IMG/VR virus record: IMGVR_UViG_3300037714_000266
Span: 1-64,000 of that record
DNA length: 64,000 nt
DNA from: a virus
Taxonomy: Duplodnaviria > Caudoviricetes
Direction: 5' to 3' (one strand)
In this document: positions 1 to 43,897 of the stretch, in pieces
How positions within the stretch are numbered: the first letter of the stretch is position 1
Layout of the letters: the number at the start of each line of letters is the position of its first letter
The notes under the pieces: generated by a model
Told to the model about the DNA's origin: nothing
Seen by the model: only the letters and a program-made list of their open reading frames with translations
The model's database searches: none
Position numbers and translations under genes: made by a program

Positions 1-8
1 CCTCCGAT

Positions 9-358
9 CCTCCATCTCCTCCTAAGCGCCGCCGTCCTCCATCTCTACTAAAAACGTGTCTCCGCGGTCCCCATCTCTCCTCCATCTCCCACGATACGAA
101 GCGTCTCCGACCCACTCCATCCTACTCATGATCTCATAGCTAGCGTCCCCTCCACCTCCATCTCACCCTGAACGCCGCCGATGATCTGTTCCCTCCATCT
201 CCTACTGTCTGATCCTCTAACTCGTCACGTACTTCCCCGACCTCCATCTCCCAGTCTGCGGATCCCCTCCATCCAATTGAAAACCCTGGTCCTCCACTCC
301 TACCGTTTTCAGCCTCCTCCTCCATCTCATGCTGCCTCCAACCCACCGCTTCTCCATC
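9..358. repeat. Non-canonical short-repeat array: CCTCCATCTC (GAGATGGAGG on minus) separated by unique 15-39 nt segments; may continue left of the window
   Basis: Exact copies start at 9, 36, 79, 155, 192, 241 and 319; degenerate copies near 68, 113, 266, 291 and 351. The array begins directly after the stop codon of the TnpB-like gene. Confidence 0.8.
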
Positions 359-1864
359 CTAGTTCGCGACCTTTGGACTGAGTTCGCTCAGATCGCGACC
401 GAGGAGGTTCTTGGCCGCTGCGATGTCGAGGTGCTCTCGATACTTGCACTTGGTGCACGACAACTTCCACCTCACCATGTCGCGGTTCTTTTCGTCAGTA
501 TGGCCGCAGGACGGGCATCGCTGTGAGATGTACTTCGGATCGAGTGAGATGACCTCGATGCCCGCCTCTTCGCAGCATGAACGAATCCGCTGCTCCAACT
601 GGTAATACGGCCACTCCTGAATGAGTTGCACCACGCGTTCGTTGGCCAGATCGGTGTCGCGGATCTTGCTGAAGTCTTCGACGAGAAGGGTCTTGACCCC
701 GCGCTGGTCGAGCCACCGAACCAGTCGCCGAGCGATCGTCTGACATTTGGTGGCGCGCCACCTAGCAGCCTTGTCCATCAGCGGCTTGGTGGGACGAAGG
801 ATCCTTTTTCGTCCGCGACCAGAGCGCGCAGAAGCCTTTGAGTCCCACTGGTACTTCTTGCGCCGAGTCTGGATCTGCTTGAGGTAGGCGATGATGTCGT
901 TCGCGTCGTAGATCCACCGCTCACCGTCGTCGACCGCGCACGCGAGAAAGGTACGGATGCCTCGGTTGATGGCAGCGGTCTTCCCCTTCGACTTTTCCTG
1001 GACGAACCTCTTGTACGAGAACTTGAGGTGCCACCGGTTCTTTCGATCCCGTTCGATCATCGCGTCGCCGTGTTTCCACGTCCCGTTGGCAATGTTCTTG
1101 AGCACCGTGCGCTGGTAGGCGTCGCGTGGCTGAACTCGAACTCTCCACCTTTGACCCCGGCCACTCCTGAGCGTGAAGTCGACCATGTAGTCTTTGCTGG
1201 CCTTATCGTCGGCCTTCACGATCCTCACTTCCTTAGCTCGTAGCGGTATGGGGCAGGTGTCGCGGTAGTGTGGCGGCGAGCAGGACTGGCGAACCAGCGC
1301 ATCGTACCGAGTCTGAACCCACTTCTTCCACGCCGACCGACTTGCCACGGCCGCCATCGCGCCGGAGATGTCCGGACTGGCGGTTCGCGCGATCTTGTAG
1401 ACATTCAGCTTGGAGTCAGGCCACTCCTTCTTGGTCTTTGGCTTTCGGCCGTGCTCTCGCACGAACTCGTCGAACATGGCCCCCTCAGCCGCCCACAGCG
1501 CCCGTATGACCGCATTCTTGCCCGAGGCTACGTCGCGCTGTGTTTGGTACAACTCGCCCTGAAGCGCCTTCCACGACTCTCCACTGGCGCTCTCGTTGTT
1601 GCCCCCCAGGGAGCACGCGAAGCGAGAGTCGAGTTTCAGTCGGGCCGTTGCACGTACGATCGGGGTAGATCCAGAAGGCTCCGCATCAGTGGCGCAGTTG
1701 TGTCCCGACGCTTCCTCGCCTTCAGGGTGTGGAGGCACCCTGTTGGAACCCGCTGACGCGAGTTTAGTAGGAGTGGCCGTCGCAACGGCCTTGTTAGCGA
1801 GCACATCAGGGCTTTCTTCCACCGGGCTCAATGATGCGGAACCTACTGGATCTATCACCGTCAT
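359..1864 (-). CDS. tnpB: TnpB/Cas12f-like RNA-guided protein, predicted nuclease-dead (RuvC-I D->N)
   Basis: C-terminal half has the TnpB layout: AINRG (normally G[IV]DLG), LLVEDF, WPYYQLEQRI, DPKYISQRCPSCGH, CTKCKY, LDIAAAKNL. The true start is uncertain because the first ~70 aa are low-complexity. Confidence 0.85.
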   Translation of the reverse strand: MTVIDPVGSASLSPVEESPDVLANKAVATATPTKLASAGSNRVPPHPEGEEASGHNCATDAEPSGSTPIVRATARLKLDSRFACSLGGNNESASGESWKALQGELYQTQRDVASGKNAVIRALWAAEGAMFDEFVREHGRKPKTKKEWPDSKLNVYKIARTASPDISGAMAAVASRSAWKKWVQTRYDALVRQSCSPPHYRDTCPIPLRAKEVRIVKADDKASKDYMVDFTLRSGRGQRWRVRVQPRDAYQRTVLKNIANGTWKHGDAMIERDRKNRWHLKFSYKRFVQEKSKGKTAAINRGIRTFLACAVDDGERWIYDANDIIAYLKQIQTRRKKYQWDSKASARSGRGRKRILRPTKPLMDKAARWRATKCQTIARRLVRWLDQRGVKTLLVEDFSKIRDTDLANERVVQLIQEWPYYQLEQRIRSCCEEAGIEVISLDPKYISQRCPSCGHTDEKNRDMVRWKLSCTKCKYREHLDIAAAKNLLGRDLSELSPKVAN

Positions 1865-1873
1865 AACTAACTC

Positions 1874-1901
1874 ATCGTATAATGTGAAATAGAATAGTCA
1901 A
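1874..1901 (-). promoter_or_regulatory. sigma70-like promoter for the tnpB-like gene
   Basis: TTGACT-N16-TACGAT on minus in an AT-rich gap; same pattern as five other sites. Confidence 0.6.
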
Positions 1902-1903
1902 AC

Positions 1904-2527
1904 TCATTCGCGAGGGACGTGTTTGTCGCAGCGGTAAAACCGGGAGATGCCAGTGCCCCACTCCCACCTCGCCCGATTACTGCACCAGTCACAAGTCGTC
2001 ATGCCAGGCTCATACGCCACCCACCCATCAACCACCGCCTCTCTCGTGTCGGGGTCGGCAGGCGGTAGCTTCTCCAGCCAGAAGGCGAGATCCAAACTCG
2101 CCTGCCGCATCGAGCGTATGCACTCGGAGCACGTGACGGCCTCGGGTTTGGTGGCGAAGTAGTCTTCCTTGGACGACCGGCCGCACCAAACCCGCAATCC
2201 TCCCAACTCATGGGGCGATGCCAGAAAAAAGTGTGTGACGACCTTCCTGATCCTCAGCAGTGCAGTTTTTCTCGCGACAACCGTTTCACCATGAGCGTTT
2301 CGTTGGGAACAGCGGGACACATCAGGGTTCCCGAAGTCTTCGAGCGCCTCGGCGAGTTGCTTATGGAGAGTGTTGGTATGAGGACGGGACCACCTCCCCA
2401 GCCGATCCACAATCGCCGTCGCAGCGCAGTCGGAGCAAATCGAACCCAACACCGTTGAGTTTCCACAGTCGCATTTAGAATCTAAGGGCTTCCTGAATGT
2501 CACGGAAGCTTCCACTCTTTTGGCCAC
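1904..2527 (-). CDS. Hypothetical protein with Cys-rich segments and a C-terminal C..C...W...YRCDxHVP module
   Basis: 207-aa ORF in tight operon packing. Confidence 0.6.
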   Translation of the reverse strand: MAKRVEASVTFRKPLDSKCDCGNSTVLGSICSDCAATAIVDRLGRWSRPHTNTLHKQLAEALEDFGNPDVSRCSQRNAHGETVVARKTALLRIRKVVTHFFLASPHELGGLRVWCGRSSKEDYFATKPEAVTCSECIRSMRQASLDLAFWLEKLPPADPDTREAVVDGWVAYEPGMTTCDWCSNRARWEWGTGISRFYRCDKHVPRE

Positions 2528-3036
2528 GGGCGAGTGTCGTCACCCTGAACGCCGCCGATGTGATCGAAGTGGAGATTCTCCCAAAGCTGGCGAAGGAGAT
2601 CTAACCGCGCACGCTGTCTGATGATGGCGGCATTCCTGCGAGGCGAGGCGGCGCTACGTGAGAAGGTGTCTGTGTCATGGATCGTCTCTTCGACACGCTT
2701 GGCAATCCAGACGCGCACGCTTTCACACGAGGCGTCGAAACCTGACGCGAAGTCGTCCTTGTACTTTTTTGGGAATTGACGAAAGCCCACTGCGGAAAAT
2801 CCCTCAGTGAGAGGCTCTAGGCTTGAGGGTCGAAAGGCGCGGTAACCTGGTTTCGGGTATGGAAAATCGATGTGCCAAAACCCGTACCTGTCTAATCCGA
2901 CGACCTCACCCTCGCGGGCGTGCATCGGGTGACCCTTCAGGTTCACCCTGACTCGCTGACCAACCTGAAAGATGGGTCGAAGCAGCAGGTGACGTGGCTC
3001 GATCACGTCATTCGACTCGGTCATCAGAACGGCCAC
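2500..3036 (-). CDS. Hypothetical protein with an SH3/KOW-like N-terminus
   Basis: FQVGQRVRV...EGEVVG pattern; overlaps its neighbours operon-style. Confidence 0.55.
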   Translation of the reverse strand: MAVLMTESNDVIEPRHLLLRPIFQVGQRVRVNLKGHPMHAREGEVVGLDRYGFWHIDFPYPKPGYRAFRPSSLEPLTEGFSAVGFRQFPKKYKDDFASGFDASCESVRVWIAKRVEETIHDTDTFSRSAASPRRNAAIIRQRARLDLLRQLWENLHFDHIGGVQGDDTRPWPKEWKLP

Positions 3037-3335
3037 GGAGCACGGCCGCGACCGAGGCTCCCGTTCTTGGTGCGGTTCGAGGCGGTTCGACTCGTGACCC
3101 TCCGTGGTGCAGACGTCTGCACAACGTCATCATCTACCGGATCACCGGATCGGAACCGCTCGACGTACTGATCGACTGCCTCCATCAGCAAGCTCTTTTG
3201 GCTGTAGCTGAGAACGCCATCGAAACCTGGTGCCGTGGCCGTCCAGCGCTCGCTGACGGGCCCGTCCGGGCTCAACGTCAGTTGAAAGCCTCGGTACTTG
3301 TAGACGCCCTTGGAAACTCGCTTGGCACCGCTCAT
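3024..3335 (-). CDS. Hypothetical early protein
   Basis: GGAAGGAAGG RBS and promoter directly upstream. Confidence 0.6.
   Translation of the reverse strand: MSGAKRVSKGVYKYRGFQLTLSPDGPVSERWTATAPGFDGVLSYSQKSLLMEAVDQYVERFRSGDPVDDDVVQTSAPRRVTSRTASNRTKNGSLGRGRAPWPF
3107..3122. repeat. 16-bp perfect palindrome GTGCAGACGTCTGCAC, copy 1 of 5
   Basis: Read directly; lies inside a CDS. Confidence 0.95.
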
Positions 3336-3359
3336 GGGTCCACCTTCCTTCCGCTATCT

Positions 3360-3387
3360 ATGTTAGCCACTGGATAGCGTTAGTCAA
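3360..3387 (-). promoter_or_regulatory. sigma70-like promoter
   Basis: TTGACT-N16-TAACAT followed by the leader AGATAGCGGAAGGAAG. Confidence 0.7.
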
Positions 3388-3397
3388 GTAGTGGTTT

Positions 3398-3826
3398 TCA
3401 GCGCCTCGACGGTGCCAGATAACCCTTGGCGATCCCATGCAGCACAAGAAGCCACGTGCCGGAAAGATCGCCAAGGAGATCGTGGATGCGCTCGATCACC
3501 TCTTCTCTTTCGGGTGGCCACGAACTCCAGTAGTCGACCCACTCGACGTCTCCATTGATGATGGCCGTGTCTGTGAGAGCGTCGTCGCTACCTTCCACCT
3601 CGACCGCCATCTTGATGGTCACCGAGAGCTTGCCTGAGTGCTCGACGTGCTTGATTCGCCAGATCCCGTGTTCGTCGAACAGGATACTGAAGCGATCACC
3701 GGTCGAAAGGACAACGCAGCCGTCATGATCATAGGCCCCCCACTCGTTGCTCAAGGACTTATCGGAGGACTCGACTTCGACGAGGTCGTCGCTAGCGCCG
3801 TAGATTTTGAGATCCATCACAGCCAC
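3398..3826 (-). CDS. Hypothetical phage protein
   Basis: 142-aa acidic ORF in operon packing. Confidence 0.6.
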   Translation of the reverse strand: MAVMDLKIYGASDDLVEVESSDKSLSNEWGAYDHDGCVVLSTGDRFSILFDEHGIWRIKHVEHSGKLSVTIKMAVEVEGSDDALTDTAIINGDVEWVDYWSSWPPEREEVIERIHDLLGDLSGTWLLVLHGIAKGYLAPSRR

Positions 3827-4200
3827 CCCAGTGCCAAATAGTTGATCGTCAGGTGCATCAAGTTGTCGGCGATGATGAACAGCCAGGTGCTCATCCAGAT
3901 CGGCACCCCAGCGTCATACCCGGTGTTGTTCGTCTTCTCCCAGACCGGCCATGCACTTCGTGGCGCGATGTAGTTCTTTGCGAACACCACGTACCGAGCG
4001 AGCGCCAATCGATCGATCACAGCGTGCGTTCCCACGATGACCGCAAGGGCGACGTGGGACTGCGTCAGGAGAAGGAACGGCAGTCCGTAGAACATGGCGT
4101 GTACGACGGCAGCAACCCAGGACTTCCGTTTCCGGGTCGCCATCCAGTCGCTCTGAAGAACGTAGTCTCCGGCCAGATGCGCAAGAAGCTGTTCCATCAT
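3817..4200 (-). CDS. DUF3307-like membrane protein
   Basis: LLAHLAGDYVLQSDWMA..K, HAMFY and THAVIDR motifs; hydrophobic helices. Confidence 0.75.
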   Translation of the reverse strand: MMEQLLAHLAGDYVLQSDWMATRKRKSWVAAVVHAMFYGLPFLLLTQSHVALAVIVGTHAVIDRLALARYVVFAKNYIAPRSAWPVWEKTNNTGYDAGVPIWMSTWLFIIADNLMHLTINYLALGWL

Positions 4201-5153
4201 TTCACCAATCGATAGCTGTCCCCTGCCATGTCGGTGACTCGGTTCTCGTTCTTGGCGATTCGTGGAACGTGAGAGTCGCAACAATATCCGCGACACCCGT
4301 ACTGCGCGAACTGGGCCTTGGGGTTATGCCACGTCGCAGGGACTAAAAACTTGAAGCAAGCGGGGTGCTCACAGAAGTAGCCGTCAGGAGCCGGCGTCCA
4401 TCCATCGGCCACTGGTATCGGATCCCGCGTCGCGCACTTGACGTAGATCCCATAACCGCCGCTGTCGACGACACCGACGCATACCCCGTTGTCGAACGCG
4501 AGAGTGACCTCTTGAGCCTCGGCATCATCTTCCGACAAGTCCGACACCGCCGTCTTCGGAACGTGCTCATCGCACCGGTACGGAGGGCGTTGACCGGGCG
4601 TGGGTCTGTACCAGGTCGCAGGCTCTCCGCAGCACTGTCCATCCTCTTGGTGCACGCATAGGGCAGCGGCATCCCCGAGGGACTTGCCGCTGTAGGACTT
4701 CCACGCCTCCACGACGGCGCCTGTGGCCGCGCTGACGGATTGGATGACCGTGTGGTCGGGCCCCATAGCGACGCCGCCAGTCCGGTCCACACCGGGGTCC
4801 ATGCCGATCACTCGTCTTGTCCTGTCGTAAACCGCGTCATTGCCACGTACCTGCCGCTGGAGATCGGCAAGGGAGACGGCCTTGGTGGGTCCGATGCCGG
4901 TGGTCTTGAGGTTGCCTTCGGGGATGCACGAAGACCACCACTCCCTTTCGGCGATGAACCTGGGTTCGCCTTCTTTGAGTTTCTTTGGATTGGCGTACTT
5001 GCGCGGGTACACGGCCTTGTACTTCACGCGTTCTTCGCCCCATCGGTTCGCTTCGCCGCACTGAGGGCAGTGTTTGTAGCCGCCTTCGTACCGACCCGGT
5101 TTGTGATCGGGACACGATTCAGGTTTATGGAGATAGTCACGCATCGCTGTCAT
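4197..5153 (-). CDS. Hypothetical protein with two C..C...W...Y.CDxHVP modules
   Basis: 318-aa ORF containing YRCDEHVP and YCCDSHVP. Confidence 0.6.
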   Translation of the reverse strand: MTAMRDYLHKPESCPDHKPGRYEGGYKHCPQCGEANRWGEERVKYKAVYPRKYANPKKLKEGEPRFIAEREWWSSCIPEGNLKTTGIGPTKAVSLADLQRQVRGNDAVYDRTRRVIGMDPGVDRTGGVAMGPDHTVIQSVSAATGAVVEAWKSYSGKSLGDAAALCVHQEDGQCCGEPATWYRPTPGQRPPYRCDEHVPKTAVSDLSEDDAEAQEVTLAFDNGVCVGVVDSGGYGIYVKCATRDPIPVADGWTPAPDGYFCEHPACFKFLVPATWHNPKAQFAQYGCRGYCCDSHVPRIAKNENRVTDMAGDSYRLVK

Positions 5154-5999: not shown

Positions 6000-6700
6000 A
6001 TCCCGCTCTCGTCGTGCTCGCTATCACACCGCGAGCACATATCAGCCTCGCAGTGTTCGCACTGATGTGGCGCATCTGCGGTGTCGTGGCCGCAGTGCTC
6101 GCAACTCCACAACCTGCTCATATCTTGCTCGTGGTCGTGATACAAGGGACGTGGAGATCGCAGGCGTAGAGGCATGCACCCCATAACTGCCATGCGGCCG
6201 GCTCGCTACAGTGGTCGCACCGCTCACTGAAAGCGAACCGATCCCACCCCTCCACCACAGGAGCGCTCGGGTCTGGCTCGGGCGGAGAGAGCGGGGTCTT
6301 TACATCAGTAACATCGTCCTCGGTCATCCCGGTTCCCTCCCTGTCTGAACGGCGAACGATGCGGACACGATCGCTTTCTCGACGTCCCTGGCGTAGTACG
6401 CAGCCACCCACCAATCTGCCATACGGCTCAAGGAGAAGCGGGAGGATCTGCAGGTGCGCTGAGGTCGGGCTCGGGGGGCGTGGCGGGTCTGCCTCGTCTC
6501 CGGGGCAGTCCTCCCCCATCCCCGACAGCGCTGGGATATGCCCGCAGTGACCGTGCTCCATGCACGGGTCGCAGAGGTTCTTACTGCACACGGCGCAGTA
6601 GTCGTGCAGGTCGTCGGACTCCGCGCCGCAACGTTCGCACTTCATCGCTCGCCATCCCAATTGATTGCGTACTTCAAGTGATCTTGGACTCCACTATCCC

Positions 6701-6728
6701 ATCCTACAGCATAGATGTAGATAGTCAA
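6701..6728 (-). promoter_or_regulatory. sigma70-like promoter
   Basis: TTGACT-N16-TAGGAT in an intergenic AT-rich patch. Confidence 0.65.
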
Positions 6729-11692: not shown

Positions 11693-11720
11693 AGACTACG
11701 CAATGGTTAGCAATAGTCAA
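11693..11720 (-). promoter_or_regulatory. sigma70-like promoter
   Basis: TTGACT-N16-TAGTCT immediately upstream of the RF-like gene. Confidence 0.65.
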
Positions 11721-29138: not shown

Positions 29139-29167
29139 TTGACTAGCGCTTCCTATATGCCTAATAT
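29139..29167 (+). promoter_or_regulatory. sigma70-like promoter
   Basis: TTGACT-N17-TAATAT followed by the leader AGATAGTGGAAGGAAG, nearly identical to the leader at ~3345-3360. Confidence 0.75.
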
Positions 29168-30453: not shown

Positions 30454-30530
30454 GGGGCTGTAGCTCAGTCTGGTAGAGCATCCGCCTTTTAAGCGGGCGC
30501 GCGTGGGTTCAAATCCCTCCAGCCCCACCA
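30454..30530 (+). tRNA. tRNA-Lys(TTT)
   Basis: Cloverleaf, loop CTTTTAA, CCA. Confidence 0.9.
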
Positions 30531-30533
30531 TTT

Positions 30534-30608
30534 GCCGCAGAAGCTAGACAGGAACAGCACTCGGTTCTTACCCGAGAGATCCCCGGTTCGATTCCGGGTT
30601 GCGGTACC
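30534..30608 (+). tRNA. tRNA-Lys(CTT)
   Basis: Loop TTCTTAC, TTCGATT T-loop. Confidence 0.85.
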
Positions 30609-30613
30609 GACAT

Positions 30614-30687
30614 TCGGGAGTCGTCTAGCGGTAGGACGATCGGCTCTGGACCGATCAACCGGGGTTCGAATCCCTGCTCCCGAACCA
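30614..30687 (+). tRNA. tRNA-Gln(CTG)
   Basis: Loop CTCTGGA, CCA. Confidence 0.9.
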
Positions 30688-30756
30688 AGCACTCGCTCTC
30701 TGACAACTGAAGAAGGAATTTCCAAAAGGAAGGGGTCACCGAAACCCCTTCCACTT

Positions 30757-30832
30757 GGGTCTGAAGCTCAAATGGGAGAGCGGCCGACTGTTAATCGGAT
30801 GGTTGCGGGTTCGATCCCCGCCAGGCCCGCCA
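30757..30832 (+). tRNA. tRNA-Asn(GTT)
   Basis: Loop CTGTTAA, CCA. Confidence 0.9.
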
Positions 30833-30838
30833 AGTCAT

Positions 30839-30913
30839 AGGTCACGGTCTGGGTAACCGGGTTGGTCTCCAAAACCGACCGTCTGCAACGTTCGATTCGT
30901 TGGTGACCTGCCA
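30839..30913 (+). tRNA. tRNA-Trp(CCA)
   Basis: Loop CTCCAAA, GCCA end; atypical D-arm. Confidence 0.8.
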
Positions 30914-30916
30914 AAT

Positions 30917-30993
30917 GGGATGGAAGATGAAGTGGTGGAATCGCTGGCCTGTCACGTCAGAGTAAGCGGGTTCAACTCCCGTCCGTCCCGCCA
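30917..30993 (+). tRNA. tRNA-Asp(GTC)
   Basis: Loop CTGTCAC, GCCA. Confidence 0.9.
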
Positions 30994-30994
30994 C

Positions 30995-31069
30995 GCTGTT
31001 CTTGCGTAAGTGGTCTGCGCGCTCGGCTGAAGCCCGAGAGGACCGGGTTCGATTCCTGGGGACAGCACC
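30995..31069 (+). tRNA. tRNA-Phe(GAA)
   Basis: Loop CTGAAGC. Confidence 0.85.
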
Positions 31070-31143
31070 GGGGTGGAGTCGCGGCGTGCGACGCCTGTTT
31101 TGGGAACAGGAGGCGGCTGGTTCAACTCCAGTCACCCCGACCA
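31069..31143 (+). tRNA. tRNA-Pro(TGG)
   Basis: CGGGGTG acceptor, loop TTTGGGA, ACCA. Confidence 0.85.
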
Positions 31144-31145
31144 AT

Positions 31146-31219
31146 GTCCTCGATGCTCGAATGGAACGAGCGCCGGTTTCCTAAACCGGAGTGTGCAGGT
31201 TCGAATCCTGCCGAGGACG
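31146..31219 (+). tRNA. tRNA-Arg(CCT)
   Basis: Loop TTCCTAA; no encoded CCA. Confidence 0.85.
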
Positions 31220-31232
31220 CTGAAAGATTTTC

Positions 31233-31320
31233 GGAGCGAGGTTTCCATCATGGTAGATGGCTCCCGGCTGTAACCCGGCAGGTGTTCCACACTGGGGTTC
31301 GAATCCCTCCCGCTCCACCA
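31233..31320 (+). tRNA. tRNA-Tyr(GTA)
   Basis: Loop CTGTAAC, long variable arm, ACCA. Confidence 0.85.
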
Positions 31321-31321
31321 T

Positions 31322-31396
31322 TGGACCGGACGGTCTGGTCGACCTGTTTCGCCTGATAAGCGGAGCGGTCAGGTTCAATTCCTGGCGGTCCAACCA
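31322..31396 (+). tRNA. tRNA-Ile(GAT)
   Basis: Loop CTGATAA, ACCA. Confidence 0.85.
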
Positions 31397-31398
31397 AC

Positions 31399-31472
31399 GC
31401 CTCGCAAGCAGAGACGGCGCTGCACTCGCTTGGTATGTGAGTTAGATCGGTTCAAGTCCGATGCGAGGCTCC
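31399..31472 (+). tRNA. tRNA-Thr(GGT)
   Basis: Loop TTGGTAT. Confidence 0.8.
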
Positions 31473-31476
31473 GTAT

Positions 31477-31554
31477 GGTGATCGATGCCGAAGTAGTCGA
31501 GGCGCGCGGTTGTGGACCGCGTTCAAGCGGGTGCGAGTCCCGTCGATCACACCA
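31477..31554 (+). tRNA. tRNA-His(GTG)
   Basis: G-1 present, loop TTGTGGA, ACCA. Confidence 0.9.
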
Positions 31555-31578
31555 GGGTAGCTCAATCGCATGGTAAAT

Positions 31579-31656
31579 GCCCCCGGGTCTAGGAGTGGTT
31601 CTCCTAGCCGTTCTTATAAGGCGGTAAAGCAGGTTCGATTCCTGACGGGCGCACCA
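31579..31656 (+). tRNA. tRNA-Ile(TAT), atypical
   Basis: Loop CTTATAA, GGTTCGATTCC, ACCA; one acceptor mismatch and a weak stem. Confidence 0.55.
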
Positions 31657-31690
31657 AACTGCTGTCGGTTCAAGTCCGACCTGACCCACC

Positions 31691-31762
31691 CGTCCGGTAG
31701 CTCAGTGGTAGAGCGCTCGCTCGACACGCGAGAGGTCGTGGGATCGTGTCCCACCCGGACGA
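31691..31762 (+). tRNA. tRNA-Val(GAC)
   Basis: Loop TCGACAC; atypical T-loop. Confidence 0.8.
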
Positions 31763-31773
31763 CTACACACAAC

Positions 31774-31847
31774 GGGGCCATCGTCTAACGGGAGGACGTC
31801 TCGCTTGCAACGAGAAAATAAGAGTTCGATTCTCTTTGGTTCCACCA
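31774..31847 (+). tRNA. tRNA-Ala(TGC)
   Basis: G3:U70 in acceptor, loop CTTGCAA, ACCA. Confidence 0.9.
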
Positions 31848-31852
31848 CTTTT

Positions 31853-31927
31853 GCGGGTAAGGCCAAATCGGTGAGGCGTCAGGTTTCCACCCTGAAGAAG
31901 TCGGTTCGATCCCGACTGCCCGCTCCA
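31853..31927 (+). tRNA. tRNA-Gly(TCC)
   Basis: Loop TTTCCAC, TCCA. Confidence 0.9.
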
Positions 31928-31930
31928 CTT

Positions 31931-32001
31931 GTCGCGATCTTCTGGGAAGGACACCGGCTGCAACCCGGTGAAGGAGAGTCCGATTCTCTCTCGCGACTCC
32001 A
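31931..32001 (+). tRNA. tRNA-Cys(GCA)
   Basis: Loop CTGCAAC, TCCA. Confidence 0.85.
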
Positions 32002-32007
32002 GAGTTT

Positions 32008-32080
32008 GCTCTCGACGCCGACAGGAACGGCAATCGGATTTCTACTCCGATCTTTTGGGGTTCGAGTCCTCACGAGAGCG
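32008..32080 (+). tRNA. tRNA-Arg(TCT)
   Basis: Loop TTTCTAC. Confidence 0.85.
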
Positions 32081-32084
32081 CTGT

Positions 32085-32160
32085 GACCGTGTAGCTCGAT
32101 TGGACGAGCGCCTGGCTACGAACCAGGAGGATGGGGGTTCGAGTCCCTCCACGGTCGCCA
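32085..32160 (+). tRNA. tRNA-Arg(ACG)
   Basis: Loop CTACGAA, GCCA. Confidence 0.9.
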
Positions 32161-32163
32161 GAT

Positions 32164-32236
32164 GTCTTCGTAGCTCAACAGGAGAGAGCACCGGTCTCCG
32201 AAGCCGGGGATCGTGGTTCGACTCCACGCGAAGACG
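32164..32236 (+). tRNA. tRNA-Arg(CCG)
   Basis: Loop CTCCGAA. Confidence 0.85.
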
Positions 32237-32240
32237 CTGA

Positions 32241-32312
32241 TGCGGGGTGGTGTACTAGAGCACGCCGGCCTCATAAGCCGAAGGACCTGGGCAGTTCAGG
32301 CGACCGCAACCA
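32241..32312 (+). tRNA. tRNA-Met(CAT), degenerate T-arm
   Basis: Loop CTCATAA, ACCA; poor T-loop. Confidence 0.6.
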
Positions 32313-32314
32313 AT

Positions 32315-32386
32315 CCCGGTGTGGGGTCAGAGGAGACCCAGCGGTTTCATAAGCCGCCAGAGTCGGTTCGAGTCCGATCGCCGGGA
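32315..32386 (+). tRNA. tRNA-Met/Ile2(CAT)
   Basis: Loop TTCATAA. Confidence 0.8.
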
Positions 32387-32390
32387 CTGA

Positions 32391-32467
32391 CGGGGTATAG
32401 CGCAGTTTGGAAGCGCGCCGCATTTGGGATCCGGAGGTCGTCGGTTCGAACCCGACTACCCCGACCA
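32391..32467 (+). tRNA. tRNA-Pro(TGG), second copy
   Basis: Loop TTTGGGA, ACCA; one stem mismatch. Confidence 0.85.
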
Positions 32468-32472
32468 CGTGA

Positions 32473-32548
32473 GTGCGGATAGCTCAGATGGAAGAGCGCT
32501 GGTGTTACATACCGGAAGTCGTCGGTTCGAACCCGACTCCGCATACCA
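32473..32548 (+). tRNA. tRNA-Val(TAC)
   Basis: Loop GTTACAT, ACCA. Confidence 0.85.
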
Positions 32549-32549
32549 A

Positions 32550-32637
32550 GCTCAGATGGCGGAATGGCAGACGCGCTGGTTTGAGAGACCAGTGAGGCGT
32601 AGACCTCGTGAGGGTTCGACTCCCTCTCTGAGCACCA
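32550..32637 (+). tRNA. tRNA-Leu(GAG)
   Basis: Long variable arm, loop TTGAGAG, ACCA. Confidence 0.9.
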
Positions 32638-32639
32638 AG

Positions 32640-32722
32640 GCTCGCGTGGCGGAACGCAGACGCAGCTAGCCTAAACCTAGCCGTCCTTCATGGACGTGGG
32701 GGTTCAAATCCCTTCGCGAGCA
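32640..32722 (+). tRNA. tRNA-Leu(TAA)
   Basis: Long variable arm, loop CCTAAAC. Confidence 0.85.
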
Positions 32723-32727
32723 CTCAC

Positions 32728-32812
32728 GGCTGAGTGGCGGAATGGCAGACGCGCCTGGCCTAGGACCAGGTGATCTAAGATCGTGCAGGTTCGACTCCTG
32801 TCTCAGCTACCA
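32728..32812 (+). tRNA. tRNA-Leu(TAG)
   Basis: Long variable arm, loop CCTAGGA, ACCA. Confidence 0.9.
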
Positions 32813-32813
32813 T

Positions 32814-32899
32814 GCAAGCGTGGCGAAACGGAAAACGCAGCAGATTCAAGTCCTGCTGGCCCGCGAGGTCTTGTGAGTTCGAATCTCACCGCTTGCACC
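32814..32899 (+). tRNA. tRNA-Leu(CAA)
   Basis: Long variable arm, loop TTCAAGT. Confidence 0.85.
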
Positions 32900-32931
32900 G
32901 AAAACCAATAACCAAAGAAAGGAGACGACCG

Positions 32932-33465
32932 ATGCGTACGCTCGTATTGGATCGTTCATACCAGCCGCATCGTGTCGTTTCGTGGCAGCGCGCCGTCACG
33001 ATGCTCTTCCAAGGAAAGATCGAGGTGCTCGAAGAGTACGACGAGGACATTCGATCCGTCTCGATCACAATCAAGATGCCGGCCGTCGTCCGGCTTCTTC
33101 ACCACGTCACTGGACGTAAGAGAGCAATCAAGTTCTCGCGGATCAACGTGGCGACTCGTGATGACTTTCGTTGCCAATACTGCGGAGCCAAACACGCACT
33201 CGGCAAACTCACATACGACCACATTGTTCCGCGAGGCCAAGGCGGCCTGACGACGTGGACGAACATCACGATGGCCTGTTACGGCTGCAACGAGAAGAAG
33301 GGCAACCGAACCCCAGAGCAAGCGGGGATGCGGCTCAAGAAGCTTCCTGTGAAGCCAGAGAGCCTTCCAGTGGTCGTCTTCAGGATCGATCCACAAGCAA
33401 CGATCCCAGAACAGTGGGTCAACTTCATCTACTGGCACGGATCGCTGGATGACGAGGGATCGTGA
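32932..33465 (+). CDS. HNH endonuclease (McrA-like) inside the tRNA array
   Basis: AAGGAG RBS; RDDFRCQYCG...LTYDHIVPRGQGG..TWTN...AC..CN..KGNRTP. Confidence 0.9.
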   Translation: MRTLVLDRSYQPHRVVSWQRAVTMLFQGKIEVLEEYDEDIRSVSITIKMPAVVRLLHHVTGRKRAIKFSRINVATRDDFRCQYCGAKHALGKLTYDHIVPRGQGGLTTWTNITMACYGCNEKKGNRTPEQAGMRLKKLPVKPESLPVVVFRIDPQATIPEQWVNFIYWHGSLDDEGS

Positions 33466-33554
33466 AAAGTCTCCGACTCGATTGAGTCCTTGGACCGGCC
33501 GGCATGGCGGCCGGTGAGAAAAACCTCCCGTCCAAAGGAGGACCATCGCACCAA

Positions 33555-33631
33555 CGGGGTGTAGCTCAGCTTGGAAGAGCGCTCGTTTCGGGAACGAGAG
33601 GCCGCTGGTTCGAATCCAGTCACCCCGACCA
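33555..33631 (+). tRNA. tRNA-Pro(CGG)
   Basis: Loop TTCGGGA, ACCA. Confidence 0.9.
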
Positions 33632-33632
33632 C

Positions 33633-33716
33633 GGAGAGAGAACCGATCCGGGATCGGCCTGGTCTTGAACACCAAGGGACGAGATCGTTGGGGTTCGACT
33701 CCTCCTCTCTCCGCCA
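33633..33716 (+). tRNA. tRNA-Ser(TGA)
   Basis: Loop CTTGAAC, long variable arm, GCCA. Confidence 0.85.
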
Positions 33717-33718
33717 AT

Positions 33719-33804
33719 GGAGACTGATCCGAGCTGGGCTCGGCGCCGCTTGGAAAGCGGTTGGGCGCTTCGGTGTTGCGGTTCGATTCCGTCTGTCTCC
33801 GCCA
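33719..33804 (+). tRNA. tRNA-Ser(GGA)
   Basis: Loop TTGGAAA, long variable arm, GCCA. Confidence 0.85.
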
Positions 33805-33876
33805 TGACCGGTCGGCGGAAGGCTCAAAAACGAGCCTAAGTCATCGACATGACTCACTTTAGACTGGTCGTCTCAT

Positions 33877-33964
33877 GGTAACTGAATCGAGCAAGGCTCG
33901 GACCCCGTTGCTAGCGGGTGTGACGTCGTAAGGCGTTGGGGATCAAGACCTCCGGTTACCGCCA
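33877..33964 (+). tRNA. tRNA-Ser(GCT)
   Basis: Loop TTGCTAG, long variable arm, GCCA. Confidence 0.8.
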
Positions 33965-34003
33965 TGCGGATGTAGCTCAGTTGGAAGAGCGCGATCTTGC
34001 CAA

Positions 34004-34574
34004 CGGCTACGGGTTCGAATACGGTGTCGTATGGGACAACCAGCGCGGTGGAACGGGAGACACGTTTACTATACCGCCTCTGATTACCCGCGGGTTCTTT
34101 GGCCAGAACATCCTATGGCGAAGAGCGATGGGATGGTTCGTATTCATCGGGCGGTGGCGGCTGAAGCGGCCGGCCGACCGCTCCGACCAAGCGAGCACGT
34201 ACACCACAAAAATGGCGTTCGGAACGACTGGCGTGCCGACAACCTGGAAATATGCTCTCCCACGGAACACCGCATCAAGCACGCGATGCAGCAGCGCGTT
34301 ACTTTCGGTTGTGCAAGTTGCGGGATAGAGGTCGTGCGCGCACGTTCGCATGTGCGAGGCGAGAAGTCATACTGCTCGCATAAGTGCGCGCACAAGGCTA
34401 CTGAACGTACCAGGTACCCCGACAATGATGAGCTGGCAAAGTGGGTATGGCGAGAGCCGCTCACGGCGATCGCAGTGAAACTCGGCGTGTCCGATAAAGC
34501 GCTAGCCAAGAGGTGTAAGATTCGGAAGATTTCGACCCCGGGTCGGGGGTACTGGTCTAAGCGGCGATAGGTTC
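34004..34574 (+). mobile_element. HNH-carrying insertion/intron-like element at tRNA position 38/39
   Basis: Clean insertion without target duplication; 27 nt before and 4 nt after the HNH ORF. Confidence 0.75.
34031..34570 (+). CDS. HNH homing endonuclease
   Basis: HRAVAAEAAGRPL.PSEHVHHKNG.R.D.R.DNLE...H; CxxC/CxxxC zinc finger; HTH-like tail LGVSDKALAKRC...PGRGYW. Confidence 0.9.
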   Translation: MGQPARWNGRHVYYTASDYPRVLWPEHPMAKSDGMVRIHRAVAAEAAGRPLRPSEHVHHKNGVRNDWRADNLEICSPTEHRIKHAMQQRVTFGCASCGIEVVRARSHVRGEKSYCSHKCAHKATERTRYPDNDELAKWVWREPLTAIAVKLGVSDKALAKRCKIRKISTPGRGYWSKRR

Positions 34575-34614
34575 GGTCGAGGCCATGGGTTCGAGCCCCA
34601 TTATCCGCTCCAAT

Positions 34615-34690
34615 GTCCCCGTCATCTAGTGGCTCAGGATGCTGGCCCCTCAAGCCGGTCACAACGGTTCAAATCCGTTCGGGGACGCCA
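34615..34690 (+). tRNA. tRNA-Glu(CTC)
   Basis: Loop CCCTCAA, GCCA. Confidence 0.9.
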
Positions 34691-34691
34691 A

Positions 34692-34778
34692 GGAAGGTGA
34701 AGACTCAGTGGTGGGTCACCCGTTTCGAAAGCGGGGTTACGCGCAAGCGTAAGGGGTTCGACTCCTCCTCCTTCCACC
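34692..34778 (+). tRNA. tRNA-Ser(CGA)
   Basis: Loop TTCGAAA, long variable arm. Confidence 0.85.
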
Positions 34779-34782
34779 GTCA

Positions 34783-34856
34783 GGCCCTGTCGTCTATTGG
34801 TTAGGATCGGAGTCTTTCAACCTCCGGAACGGGGTTCGATTCCCCGCAGGGTCACC
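34783..34856 (+). tRNA. tRNA-Glu(TTC)
   Basis: Loop CTTTCAA. Confidence 0.85.
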
Positions 34857-34872
34857 TCGGGAAATTCCTTCG

Positions 34873-34949
34873 GCCGGTGAGGTCCCATTGGCAGGGGCGC
34901 CCGTTTTGTACGCGGGAGACTGTGGGTTCGAATCCCTCCGCCGGCTCCA
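34873..34949 (+). tRNA. tRNA-Thr(TGT)
   Basis: Loop TTTGTAC, TCCA. Confidence 0.85.
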
Positions 34950-34952
34950 TTT

Positions 34953-35028
34953 GCCCTTGAAGTCTCAATGGAGAGACGCCCGTTTCGTATTCGGGAGGCG
35001 ATCGGTTCGATCCCGATCAAGGGCTCCA
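34953..35028 (+). tRNA. tRNA-Thr(CGT)
   Basis: Loop TTCGTAT, TCCA. Confidence 0.85.
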
Positions 35029-35029
35029 T

Positions 35030-35102
35030 TGGGACGTCCCGCGGGTCGGGTGGTCGGCCTTTGAAGCCGATGACGGTGAGTTCGAGTCTTCCCGTCCCAG
35101 CC
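35030..35102 (+). tRNA. tRNA-Gln(TTG)
   Basis: Loop CTTTGAA. Confidence 0.8.
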
Positions 35103-42313: not shown

Positions 42314-43897
42314 TCATGGCACCGTGAACACCGTCGCCGACGCGATCATGTGGTCGGTGTCGGCCTCGATAACGTCGGCCGGAACGATGTCGTAGTAATA
42401 ACCGACGCTTGCCGCTGCTGTCACTATAGTCGCAGCTTGCGCGGTTGCTGTGATGTTCATAGTCGCCTGGACAGGTCCGAGGATGTGAATGATGTCAGTG
42501 AGTCGCACATGAATCGGCACGACTTGAAGCATTTTTTGGACGAGGCGCGTCAAAACACCAGCCAGCAACGCGTCCGGGTCCGTAAGTACCTCAGTGGGAA
42601 TAACCTCAATCCGAAGGACCGACGCGCGACACCAATCACATCGTGCGACCCGGTGGCAGTCGTAGACCATGTCAACGATACCGCCAAAGACCGGTGCGTC
42701 GCCCGCATACACTTCGACCTCCCAGTCATCGCCACCGACGTTGACCGGGGTCGTCTCCAAGTAGACGGGATCATCGAACTCGCCGTCGGGGAACTCTGCG
42801 TACCAATACCCGACTGAGAGGAGTTGCTCATCGATCGGCTGACCCACGCTGTTGGCCGTGAACCTGACCGACCACCTACCGTCGGAGAGGTCAGCAGTCG
42901 ACACGATCGTCATCCCTAGGACGTCGAGAGAGAGAGCGATGGCATCGTGCACCGTAGTCCCATCGGGAACCGTTCCAGACGCAGGCGGCTCAACCGGCTC
43001 AGATGCCCAGTTGGGTGTCTCGAAACAAAAGAAATCCAGAGGAATGGTGTCAGCCGGGATCTCGTCAAAGAACGGCTGATCCGGATCGAGGTCCGTGTAG
43101 AGTTTCCCACTGCCTATGGGAAGTTCGTAGACGTTTGCAGCCGGGATAGCAGCCGGTGCCGGATTGCTGATTCGCCATAGGCCAAGAGGAGTAGCTCTGT
43201 AGCCGCTGATCTTGCCGAGGATGTCGTACGCCTTGACCGTACCCTTTAGCGGAAGCCACTGACTGACATTCCGGATGGCGCTGCGCTGGTAAGCTGCCGG
43301 CTCGTGCTGATCGATATCGACGCCGTAGTCGTTACCGAGAAGCTGAATGAGAGCTGGCGGTCGAAGCGTGGCGCCGGCAAACCCCACACCCTCAGTCGCC
43401 TCGGTCGCTGGCAAAGCCGTGCCAAAGAGCCGGATCACGGGGCCGCGGTCGTCGAGTTTGTGAACCGAGTTGACTCGAAACGTGGTCCCAGTAGCGTCCT
43501 CGAAGATCCACCCCACCGAGGCCGCCTGAAGAGGTTCTAAGGGGTCGCTCGGGTCCGGGTCGTCCAGAAACACCTCCACGGTCAACCCTCCCTCAGCAAT
43601 AGCTGGAGGACTTCCTGGGGTTATCTGTGCGGACAGCGGTGTGATGGAGACGTTTTCGTCGAATTGTGTCCTGACGAGATCCGGATCCCTGAGCGAATGG
43701 AAATCAACCACCCGCAGAAGCATCTCTTCAAAAAGCGGCTGTACCGATTCGGAGAATTTCTCCAAACGGTTTCCCTGTGCCGGCTGCCGATCTAGAAACC
43801 GATCGATTTCTGGCAGGTCGTTGAAGAGCACCTGCCGAGACCAATCGAATCTACCGAACGGACCAGAGCCGAACGAGCCGCTTCCAAAACCAGGCAA
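42314..43897 (-). CDS. Baseplate wedge protein (P2 gpI / T4 gp7-like)
   Basis: L.LLG.DYG...RS.I.N..QW..LKGT.KAY; follows the baseplate-J gene. Confidence 0.65.
   Translation of the reverse strand: MPGFGSGSFGSGPFGRFDWSRQVLFNDLPEIDRFLDRQPAQGNRLEKFSESVQPLFEEMLLRVVDFHSLRDPDLVRTQFDENVSITPLSAQITPGSPPAIAEGGLTVEVFLDDPDPSDPLEPLQAASVGWIFEDATGTTFRVNSVHKLDDRGPVIRLFGTALPATEATEGVGFAGATLRPPALIQLLGNDYGVDIDQHEPAAYQRSAIRNVSQWLPLKGTVKAYDILGKISGYRATPLGLWRISNPAPAAIPAANVYELPIGSGKLYTDLDPDQPFFDEIPADTIPLDFFCFETPNWASEPVEPPASGTVPDGTTVHDAIALSLDVLGMTIVSTADLSDGRWSVRFTANSVGQPIDEQLLSVGYWYAEFPDGEFDDPVYLETTPVNVGGDDWEVEVYAGDAPVFGGIVDMVYDCHRVARCDWCRASVLRIEVIPTEVLTDPDALLAGVLTRLVQKMLQVVPIHVRLTDIIHILGPVQATMNITATAQAATIVTAAASVGYYYDIVPADVIEADTDHMIASATVFTVP

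Follow-up and report, generated by a model that had tools for sequence, protein, structure and literature searches.

A phage-borne Cas12f-derived protein without the RuvC-I aspartate, next to a CRISPR-like array: a probable RNA-guided DNA binder

Introduction

What use could a phage make of a Cas12f-like protein whose first RuvC catalytic residue is an asparagine? The question is raised by a gene near one end of a Caudoviricetes contig (IMG/VR record IMGVR_UViG_3300037714_000266), of which the first 64,000 nt, here called the window, were analysed, with several searches extended to the whole 78-kb record. A preliminary description had read the gene as a stand-alone TnpB/TldR-like gene encoding a domesticated RNA-guided regulator. 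The RNA-guided, non-cleaving part of that proposal is still the best reading; the lone-TnpB part is not, as the family is CRISPR-associated and an eroded array lies at positions 1-358 of the window. The features are collected in Table 1.

Table 1. Features of the locus (positions in the window)
Feature	Position	Strand	Remarks
Eroded short-unit CRISPR-like array	1..358	(-)	Follows directly on the stop codon; truncated at the contig end
Array segment identical to 2540-2560	163..183		21/21 nt; chance expectation ~1e-5
Cas12f-like ORF	359..1864	(-)	501 aa; conserved fold from near residue 66 (IVRATARLKLD, codon at 1660)
Codon GAC, Asp480 (RuvC-III)	425..427	(-)	LDIAAAKN aligned with AsCas12f ADYNAARN
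CxxC...CxxC zinc finger, TNB domain (Cys450, 453, 470, 473)	446..517	(-)	Pfam domain match and homologue alignment
Codon GAA, Glu396 (RuvC-II)	677..679	(-)	LVEDF aligned with AsCas12f QMEDL
Codon AAC, Asn300 (RuvC-I catalytic position)	965..967	(-)	Alignment to AsCas12f
tracrRNA-like leader (hairpins, anti-repeat, block A)	1661..1870	(-)	Overlaps putative N-terminal extension, aa 1-68
Block A (GCCTCCACACCCTGAAGGCGAGG...), anti-repeat 1	1710..1736	(-)	Contains CCTCCA, able to pair with TGGAGG at the 3' end of the repeat
Anti-repeat 2 (CCACTCCTAC)	1767..1776	(-)	Can base-pair with array unit GTAGGAGTGG (294-303)
Promoter-like site TTGACT-N16-TACGAT	1874..1901	(-)	9 nt upstream of the ORF's first ATG
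Genomic copy of the 21-mer	2540..2560		3' end of ORF 2500-3036(-)

Identity of the protein and its genomic setting

By sequence, profile and fold, the protein is descended from Cas12f, in agreement with its earlier placement as a phage-borne member of the Cas12f/TnpB family. The Pfam matches of the ORF were Cas12f1-like_TNB (2.5e-15) and OrfB_IS605 (3.6e-10), and the NCBIfam profile guided_TnpB gave 110 bits (cut-off 100). When the protein was searched against the PDB with phmmer, AsCas12f (8j12/7wju) was the best solved relative (E 1e-35, query residues 97-488), and AsCas12f was also matched by the family profile over the full length (2.7e-61). The AF2 model of the 501-aa protein had a pLDDT of 85.8, and its top Foldseek matches were all AsCas12f (E 5.7e-30, TM 0.60/0.69). 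Megablast of window positions 1-4000 against GenBank phages returned no match, and a pattern scan of bacterial and archaeal species genomes found no relatives, a weak negative since a single peptide pattern was used. A near-identical copy is present in a second sample.

The gene occurs once in the record, and no Y1 transposase (PF01797) was detected in the 78 kb, in line with the earlier statement that no tnpA is visible; since only 358 nt separate the gene from the contig end, the downstream side does not allow a judgement on the absence of a transposon. The promoter-like site belongs to a recurrent phage type, which had likewise been recognized beforehand: TTGACT-N15-17-TAnnnT is found six times in the window against 0.37 expected, a count reached in none of 100 shuffles. 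None of the eight neighbouring ORFs contains a sigma factor domain.

CRISPR arrays downstream of the gene

In relatives located on phage contigs of 40-180 kb, the gene is followed by same-strand CRISPR arrays with 36-nt repeats and unique 34-42-nt spacers. Such canonical arrays occur in most relatives and lie directly downstream, on the same strand, in L002, L005, L006, L023, L025-29, L031, L033, L035, L039 and L041-43, and the arrays of relatives hold many unique spacers and differ at the strain level. The closest relatives (L013, L007 and L022) carry 13-17-nt repeats with 15-21-nt spacers instead. Cas1 (PF01867) was absent from G000, G001 and G002 in a domain search, and the gene tables of the examined loci contain no Cas Pfam labels.

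The array of the window consists of about 13 units ending in (G/A)TGGAGG, seven of them exact copies of GAGATGGAGG, at irregular intervals of 16-49 nt and without full 36-nt repeats. GAGATGGAGG matches the conserved 3' end (TGGAGG) of the relatives' repeats, and the motif occurs nowhere else in the 78-kb record. An Rfam scan of window positions 1-3000 gave no match.

We also considered that the array might be transcribed in antisense, which would turn a 21-nt self-match of the array (described below) into a perfect repeat-then-guide unit. This was rejected as the main reading because the anti-repeats sit on the gene-sense leader, because the perfect repeats are gene-proximal, starting at or overlapping the stop codon, and because the repeats begin GTCGCAAC-like in the gene sense. 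The phrase 'spacer-derived 5' segment' of the Cas12r preprint corresponds to the standard repeat-then-spacer order.

The RuvC active site and its conservation

In the residue-by-residue alignment, the query motif AINRGI is opposite GIDLGV of AsCas12f (IALGV in the 7wju chain), which makes Asn300 the RuvC-I residue. The replacement of aspartate by asparagine is therefore borne out, although its codon had been put at about 968-970, which is the adjacent Ile codon, 3 nt away. The retained RuvC-II glutamate, RuvC-III aspartate and zinc finger were correctly identified in the preliminary description and correspond to Glu396, Asp480 and four cysteines.

The substitution is not a lone mutation. Among 59 homologues retrieved with a word index (33-62% identity), the RuvC-I residue is N in 53 and H in 6, the RuvC-II residue E in 40 and D in 16, and the RuvC-III residue D in 56. 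Across the family, N, H, T, R, Q or C occupies the RuvC-I column but never D, and two database searches yielded 147 clade sequences, none with Asp at this site. In a tree of 182 sequences, 146 non-Asp sequences formed one clade, apart from 34 DED Cas12f sequences and one DRD sequence, with moderate support (0.65) for its monophyly under midpoint rooting; the HED sequence P0175 was the only non-Asp member of the clade set placed elsewhere. The commonest triads in the tree were NED (81), NDD (19) and HED (13), next to rarer ones. The clade represents an old, widespread and independent loss of the RuvC-I aspartate within the Cas12f lineage and comprises more than 100 clusters at 50% identity.

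The N-E-D protein has probably lost DNA cleavage, judging from these residues. It is unlikely that the clade is still a nuclease serving ordinary phage-carried interference through one-metal or altered catalysis by the Asn/His-Glu-Asp site (nicking, cleavage of ssDNA or RNA, or pre-crRNA processing). The strong constraint on RuvC-II (E/D in 56/59) and RuvC-III (D in 56/59) does leave room for a catalytic or metal-dependent role of Glu396 and Asp480, such as RNA processing or nicking; the many unique spacers and strain-level differences of the relatives' arrays resemble those of interference systems, and the TnpB/Cas12 census argues that many groups with altered sites may retain activity (PMC10691335). 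In RNase H-fold nucleases, however, the RuvC-I aspartate coordinates both metals, and we found no conserved acidic residue specific to the clade that could replace it. Moreover, Cas12m with H or N at RuvC-I does not cut dsDNA, its remaining Asp residues serving in non-target-strand binding (PMC10442227). We thus prefer the non-cleaving reading.

A structured leader with candidate anti-repeats overlapping the effector frame

The conserved protein core is preceded by a 210-nt structured leader. In an alignment of eight loci (A2), it contains eight helices in which 91% of the cells are paired, compared with 36-45% when the partners are slid, and 21 of its 38 pairs show compensatory changes, a number that none of 500 shuffles reached. 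The hairpins are kept by compensatory change also in the window sequence, whose leader is rearranged relative to those of the relatives. In almost every locus the same stretch has a frame that is open over 210 nt or more, with weak amino-acid motifs, and AF2 predicts residues 1-58 to be disordered. The putative N-terminal extension may be non-coding, a reading against which the open frame and the motifs weigh to some degree; candidate start codons include the ATG at 1864 and a GTG at 1738.

Pairing between repeat and leader also covaries. CCTCCA occurs once in the leaders of seven loci, and L042 has CCTGCA in its place together with a repeat ending in GCAGG instead of GGAGG. At anti-repeat 2, relatives have CCACCTCTACCG or CAACCTCTACCG opposite the repeat CGGTAGAGGT(T)GG, again a compensatory change. 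For 10 of the 15 loci, the best repeat:leader duplex sits 55-71 nt before the conserved IVRAT codon, even though the repeats themselves differ in sequence. In a leader-by-repeat cross-matrix, read by column only because repeat length and GC content are confounders, the cognate leader was clearly the best partner for five of nine repeat families. No anti-repeats were detected in L005 and L006.

Autoregulation of the mRNA is an equally compatible reading of the pairing, and the motif contains GGAGG. The repeats might then be a purine-rich RNA element and not guides: Shine-Dalgarno-like sites, a protein sponge, or antisense elements that pair with the 5' region of the gene and tune its translation, with some other single guide serving the protein. 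In L005 an ATG and short ORFs come directly after two repeats. We regard this as very improbable: in many relatives the motif forms the 3' end of genuine 36-nt CRISPR repeats separated by unique 34-42-nt spacers, and most spacers lack a start codon.

The window array is irregular, and good pairing with anti-repeat 2 is limited to one unit, so part of the array may not function. Carried further, this would make the locus a decaying remnant in the window phage, with an intact protein, an array eroded beyond use and nothing guided. The missing full-length repeats, the 16-49-nt spacing, the single well-pairing unit and the rearranged leader would suit such a remnant, which we nevertheless consider quite improbable, since the full-length ORF retains every conserved residue and has a promoter of the phage's own recurrent type, the leader hairpins have been kept by compensatory change, and a second sample contains a near-identical copy. 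Short-unit arrays also recur in L013, L007 and L022, which indicates a maintained state.

Target searches

No protospacer was found in GenBank phages for any spacer. The relatives' own records contained no spacer targets, only 16-mers at E of about 0.2, and none emerged from an all-versus-all comparison of the fetched loci or from a search of IMG/VR with exact 24-mers from spacers. For the window, 16-nt guides taken 3' of each motif gave no matches in the 78-kb record beyond those of shuffled controls. The 21-nt self-match between the array and positions 2540-2560 is real; the genomic copy precedes the GTG start (2527) of the ORF at 1904-2527(-) by 13 nt.

Proposed mode of action

Taken together, the gene is probably the effector of a miniature phage-borne, Cas12f-derived type V CRISPR-like system in which the guide-bound target is held and not cut. 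The presence of Asn or His at the key residue and of adjacent CRISPR-like arrays makes binding rather than cutting most likely, so that the protein would be a non-cleaving RNA-guided DNA binder, Cas12m-like in action and Cas12f by descent. In this model, the phage promoter would drive a single transcript comprising the structured leader, the effector ORF and the repeat-spacer array. The leader with its two anti-repeats may act as a tracrRNA-like scaffold with which array units pair, and the protein would load the resulting leader/array guide and then bind complementary DNA. Since the RuvC-I Asp is Asn/His throughout the clade, a two-metal site should be unable to form, and therefore the complex should hold its target. 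A held target could block transcription or replication, as with Cas12m.

In the window lineage, the array seems to have shrunk to short, duplicated units that do not turn over, and for this array a fixed-guide repressor fits better than adaptive immunity. A more tentative possibility, less likely than not, is a phage-specific dead-Cas12f clade organized as a single leader-effector-array transcription unit, with the guide scaffold in the effector frame, in which the CRISPR system of the window lineage would be turning into a hard-wired repressor. The scaffold, with two co-varying anti-repeats, would lie inside the 5' end of the effector ORF, mirroring the omega-RNA over the 3' end of tnpB, and the array of this lineage would be collapsing to 10-17-nt repeat stubs with short fixed guides. 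If this is true, the locus offers a snapshot of a CRISPR system becoming the phage's hard-wired RNA-guided repressor. Because canonical arrays and eroded stubs form a series in these loci, the route by which CRISPR immunity becomes a fixed regulator can be tested directly. The loci could also address the use that phages make of a non-cutting CRISPR effector: silencing of rivals, of the host or of themselves. The clade also offers compact natural candidate binders of 430-500 aa.

Comparison with known systems

AsCas12f, the type V-F effector of Acidibacillus sulfuroxidans, shares with the window protein a similar size, the TNB zinc finger and an adjacent CRISPR array, and, as in Cas12f, the guide of the window clade may depend on a tracrRNA-like partner that carries anti-repeats. 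The clade differs from Cas12f in having Asn or His instead of the RuvC-I Asp throughout, in residing on phage contigs without cas1, and in an anti-repeat scaffold in, or overlapping, the 5' end of the effector ORF; the window protein further has a putative extension of about 65 aa at its N-terminus, for which disorder is predicted, and its array is eroded to repeat remnants of 10-17 nt. TnpB has an intact RuvC D-E-D, in contrast to the N-E-D protein of the window and a clade without any RuvC-I Asp. Whereas TnpB belongs to mobile elements with tnpA, multiple copies and a 3' omega-RNA, the window gene is single-copy with no Y1 transposase, and repeat arrays, rather than a single right end, lie downstream of it and of its relatives.

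Cas12m (type V-M) appears to be the best functional analogy. It is CRISPR-associated and has natural non-canonical RuvC triads (HDD, NDD, NED), compared with NED, NDD and HED in the window clade, and it is established to bind DNA tightly and to silence without cutting (PMC10442227, PMC11013384). Binding of dsDNA with no cutting holds for its HDD and NDD variants and even for those with a DED triad (PMC10442227, PMC11013384). Nevertheless, Cas12m is another lineage: only UnCas12m4a was matched by the family profile (3.2e-5, over the TNB domain), and Cas12m2 and GoCas12m came at Foldseek ranks 27-37 against the window model (TM 0.31-0.41). Cas12m proteins are also about 600 aa long, have a REC2 insertion and need no tracrRNA.

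TldRs generally show the same losses as dCas12f-sigmaE (RuvC-III with the C-terminus) and are not known to have CRISPR arrays; they use a single omega-like guide and are linked to fliC/opp genes. The window protein, unlike both, keeps RuvC-II, RuvC-III and the zinc finger. TldR and dCas12f-sigmaE are nuclease-deficient TnpB/Cas12f derivatives for RNA-guided transcription control, and some TldRs are phage-encoded (PMC13472631, PMC13418256). The dCas12f-sigmaE proteins have lost RuvC-III and the C-terminus, lack CRISPR arrays, use a single omega-like guide and are linked to rpoE (PMC13472631, PMC10691335), whereas the window gene has an array and no sigma factor domain in its eight neighbouring ORFs.

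Large branches of Cas12f and V-U24/43/44 whose catalytic sites are altered, many of them from metagenomes alone, are listed in the TnpB/Cas12 census (Altae-Tran et al. 2023, PMC10691335); we made no match between the window clade and a named group of that census, and found no account of the function or the RNAs of a phage-borne group of this kind. Among natural nuclease-deficient RNA-guided proteins, Cas12k, Cas12m, TldR and dCas12f-sigmaE have all brought new uses of DNA targeting to light, one in each case. To these, the clade adds a home in large phages, retained CRISPR arrays and an apparently unusual guide scaffold over the 5' end of the effector gene.

The effector protein and its phage setting

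The product of the Cas12f-like gene matches the Pfam families Cas12f1-like_TNB and OrfB_IS605, the NCBIfam model guided_TnpB (110 bits against a cut-off of 100) and PHROG transposase families. Its best solved-structure matches were AsCas12f entries (E 1e-35, aa 97–488), and alignment of AsCas12f IDLGV, QMEDL and ADYNAARN with AINRG, LVEDF and LDIAAAKN of the query places Asn300 (AAC, 965–967) at RuvC-I, Glu396 at RuvC-II and Asp480 at RuvC-III, with the CxxC...CxxC finger intact. The replacement of the RuvC-I Asp and the retention of the other motifs, as read earlier from the sequence alone, are thereby borne out, although the codon had been placed 3 nt off, at ~968–970. With 59 homologues as input, AlphaFold2 gave a model (pLDDT 85.8, pTM 0.77; residues 1–58 predicted to be disordered) that retrieved AsCas12f first in Foldseek (E 5.7e-30, TM 0.60/0.69) and other Cas12f next, with Cas12m2 at rank 27 (TM about 0.35). 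Profile search and Foldseek place the protein, by descent, in the Cas12f branch.

The 78,175-bp IMG/VR record, whose first 64 kb make up the window, is classed as linear, with a CheckV completeness estimate of 41%. A cluster of 34 tRNA genes covering most amino acids, together with baseplate and tail-fibre genes, identifies it as a piece of a large tailed-phage genome. No Y1 transposase was detected in the 78-kb record, which ends 358 nt past the gene and so limits statements on the DNA 3′ of it, and the gene is single-copy there, in agreement with the preliminary description, which saw no tnpA. The proposal that the gene has its own promoter of the phage's type is likewise supported, as TTGACT-N15–17-TAnnnT occurs six times in the window against 0.37 expected, five of the six sites starting with TTGACTA. 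Apart from DUF3307, no informative Pfam domains were found in the eight ORFs upstream of the gene.

Positions of the features discussed, in window coordinates
Feature	Position	Strand	Remark
Eroded array	1–358	−	
Cas12f-like ORF	359..1864	−	501 aa
Putative leader	1661–1870	−	Before the conserved IVRAT codon
Leader block A	1710..1736	−	
Promoter-like TTGACT-N16-TACGAT	1901–1874	−	Upstream of the Cas12f-like ORF
Promoter-family sites	1874–1901, 3360–3387, 6701–6728, 11693–11720	−	
Promoter-family sites	29139–29167, 43470–43497	+	
Genomic copy of 21-mer	2540–2560		In 3′ end of ORF 2500–3036(−)
DUF3307 ORF	3820–4296	−	Pfam 6.7e-10; sole neighbouring ORF with a Pfam match
tRNA cluster	30454–35102	+	

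Clade-wide loss of the RuvC-I aspartate

A word-index search returned 59 homologues (33–62% identity), many on contigs of 40–143 kb. In their alignment, the RuvC-I residue is N in 53 and H in 6; the RuvC-II column has E in 40 and D in 16, the RuvC-III column D in 56, and the four Cys are near-invariant. An exhaustive HMMER search gave 118 cluster representatives at E <= 1e-30. When all hits were aligned, every strong one was without the RuvC-I Asp (N, H, T, R, Q or C instead), and the next tier (about 400–450 aa, E about 1e-30 to 1e-37) was mostly canonical Cas12f with GxDxG...QxEDL...NADYNAAR. A midpoint-rooted FastTree of 182 sequences unites 146 non-Asp proteins in a single clade (support 0.65) that excludes 34 DED proteins; the RuvC-I/-II/-III triads are NED in 81, NDD in 19 and HED in 13, with rarer types besides. 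The non-Asp clade has no conserved acidic residue of its own that could take the place of the Asp. Judged from these alignments, the Asp-to-Asn change is not a lone mutation, and the clade-wide loss without such a substitute argues against both alternatives raised earlier, namely another acidic residue at the site or an isolated change in a decaying gene. The gene is predicted to encode a type V effector with a natural nuclease deficiency.

A near-identical copy of window 209–2282 from a different sample (L047:1–2074, JGI sample 3300037722) carries GAA→GAT at the RuvC-II codon (E396D, an N-D-D triad), with two further substitutions within 20 nt.

CRISPR arrays in relatives and in the window

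The effector gene is CRISPR-associated. A 182-kb IMG/VR contig (L006) carries, 29 nt after the gene and on the same strand, 13 perfect 36-nt repeats with unique spacers of 34–42 nt, followed by degenerate repeats; in L005, which is 105 kb long and bears direct terminal repeats, the array comprises at least 15 units; and in L002 (114 kb; protein 62% identical), four 36-nt repeats, of which the first overlaps the stop codon, precede degenerate copies. Among 25 further metagenome loci, most of those with downstream DNA carry such arrays 100–160 nt past the stop, their repeats having a GTCGCAAC- or GTCGGAAC-like start and a GGAAGG, TTGGAGG or GCAGG end. Four near-identical phage contigs from different samples (L026–L029) have most spacers in common and differ in one or two, which suggests gain or loss of spacers without a phage-encoded Cas1; Cas1 was absent from the three virus records searched (G000, G001 and G002). 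At L005:6145–6221 and 6419–6490, an ATG and a short open frame directly follow two array repeats, whose GGAG lies at Shine–Dalgarno distance from the ATG.

Short units characterize the arrays of the window protein's closest relatives: L013 has a 17-nt repeat, GCGGTAGRGGNTGGAGG, with spacers of 17–18 nt, and L007 and L022 have similar stubs. On the gene strand of the window, from 358 to 1, about 13 units end in (G/A)TGGAGG at a spacing of 16–49 nt. Seven of them are exact GAGATGGAGG, a 10-mer occurring nowhere else in the 78 kb, and the first, GAAGCGGTGGGTTGGAGG, which follows the stop codon directly, looks like the 3′ half of the repeat in L002. These unit ends and this likeness mark the region as an eroded array of the family type, running off the contig; the L003 and L004 assemblies break at the same place.

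A putative tracrRNA-like leader

In L007 and L013, the gene-sense strand carries exact 12-nt complements of the repeat core inside the 5′ portion of the ORF. When repeat:leader duplexes were scanned from −450 to +150 around the conserved IVRAT codon (the Cas12f core start), the best one fell 55–71 nt upstream of it in 10 of 15 loci, despite completely different repeats. The duplex comprises 13 bp plus 7 bp in L026 and CTACCATCACTC in L039, and in the window, at −117, CCACTCCTAC faces unit GTAGGAGTGG, which is a compensatory variant of CCACCTCTAC facing GTAGAGGTGG. Read by column, a leader-repeat matrix gave the cognate leader as clearly the best partner for five of nine repeat families.

The 210 nt that precede IVRAT, aligned for eight loci, gave eight helices, with 91% of cells paired against 36–45% with slid partners, and double changes in 21 of 38 pairs against 2–8 when slid, a value reached by none of 500 shuffles. 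The conserved block GCCTCCAC.CCYGAAGGCGAGG includes CCTCCA, which is complementary to the TGGAGG at the end of the repeat. CCTCCA occurs once per leader in seven loci and is replaced by CCTGCA in L042, where the repeat ends in GCAGG. In the window, CCTCCA can pair with all units, and a second anti-repeat pairs well only with the unit ending at 291. We interpret these 210 nt as a putative tracrRNA-like leader; in nearly all loci the reading frame through it stays open and shows weak amino-acid motifs, which points to a dual-use or long leader. The window leader is rearranged relative to L002:9788–9997, with the block GCCTCCAC..GAAGGCGAGG on the 3′ side of the anti-repeat hairpins, whereas in relatives it is on their 5′ side.

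A self-match and the search for targets

Window 163–183 is identical over 21 nt to a second site (chance expectation about 1e-5) located 13 nt before the GTG with which ORF 1904–2527(−) starts. In the gene-sense reading, the matching stretch makes up the distal two-thirds of a spacer but leaves out the 8 nt next to the repeat, so it is not a canonical type V guide:target pair. An antisense reading of the array would make the self-match perfect, yet it conflicts with the anti-repeat evidence; the arrays of relatives and the leader anti-repeats favour the gene-sense reading. A further pairing, of 15 bp, joins the same array unit to block A of the leader. No protospacers were found in the phage's own record, in GenBank phages, between the fetched loci of relatives or, as exact 24-mers, in IMG/VR.

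Comparison with known systems

The preliminary description had proposed a domesticated RNA-guided regulator. That proposal is supported in part: a phage-borne effector predicted to be nuclease-deficient is retained from it, but the gene is CRISPR-associated, with arrays downstream in relatives. The gene is of interest for its presence on a phage, for how old and large the clade is, for the anti-repeats embedded in the leader and for the erosion of the array in the window.

The clade keeps RuvC-III, the zinc finger and arrays, in which it presumably contrasts with TldR. The same features distinguish it from dCas12f-sigmaE (PMC13472631). A census of TnpB and Cas12 described large altered-site branches in Cas12f and several V-U groups (PMC10691335), and the non-Asp clade may be among them, with no named group matched to it. 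A myxophage has been reported to carry Cas12m, and Thermus phages Cas12r; the catalytic Asp is kept in both proteins. In active-site pattern and likely mode of action, the protein finds its parallel in Cas12m, whose variants, be the triad HDD, NDD or even DED, bind but do not cut, their remaining Asp residues helping to hold the non-target strand (PMC10442227, PMC11013384), which offers a reason for the conservation of Glu396 and Asp480.
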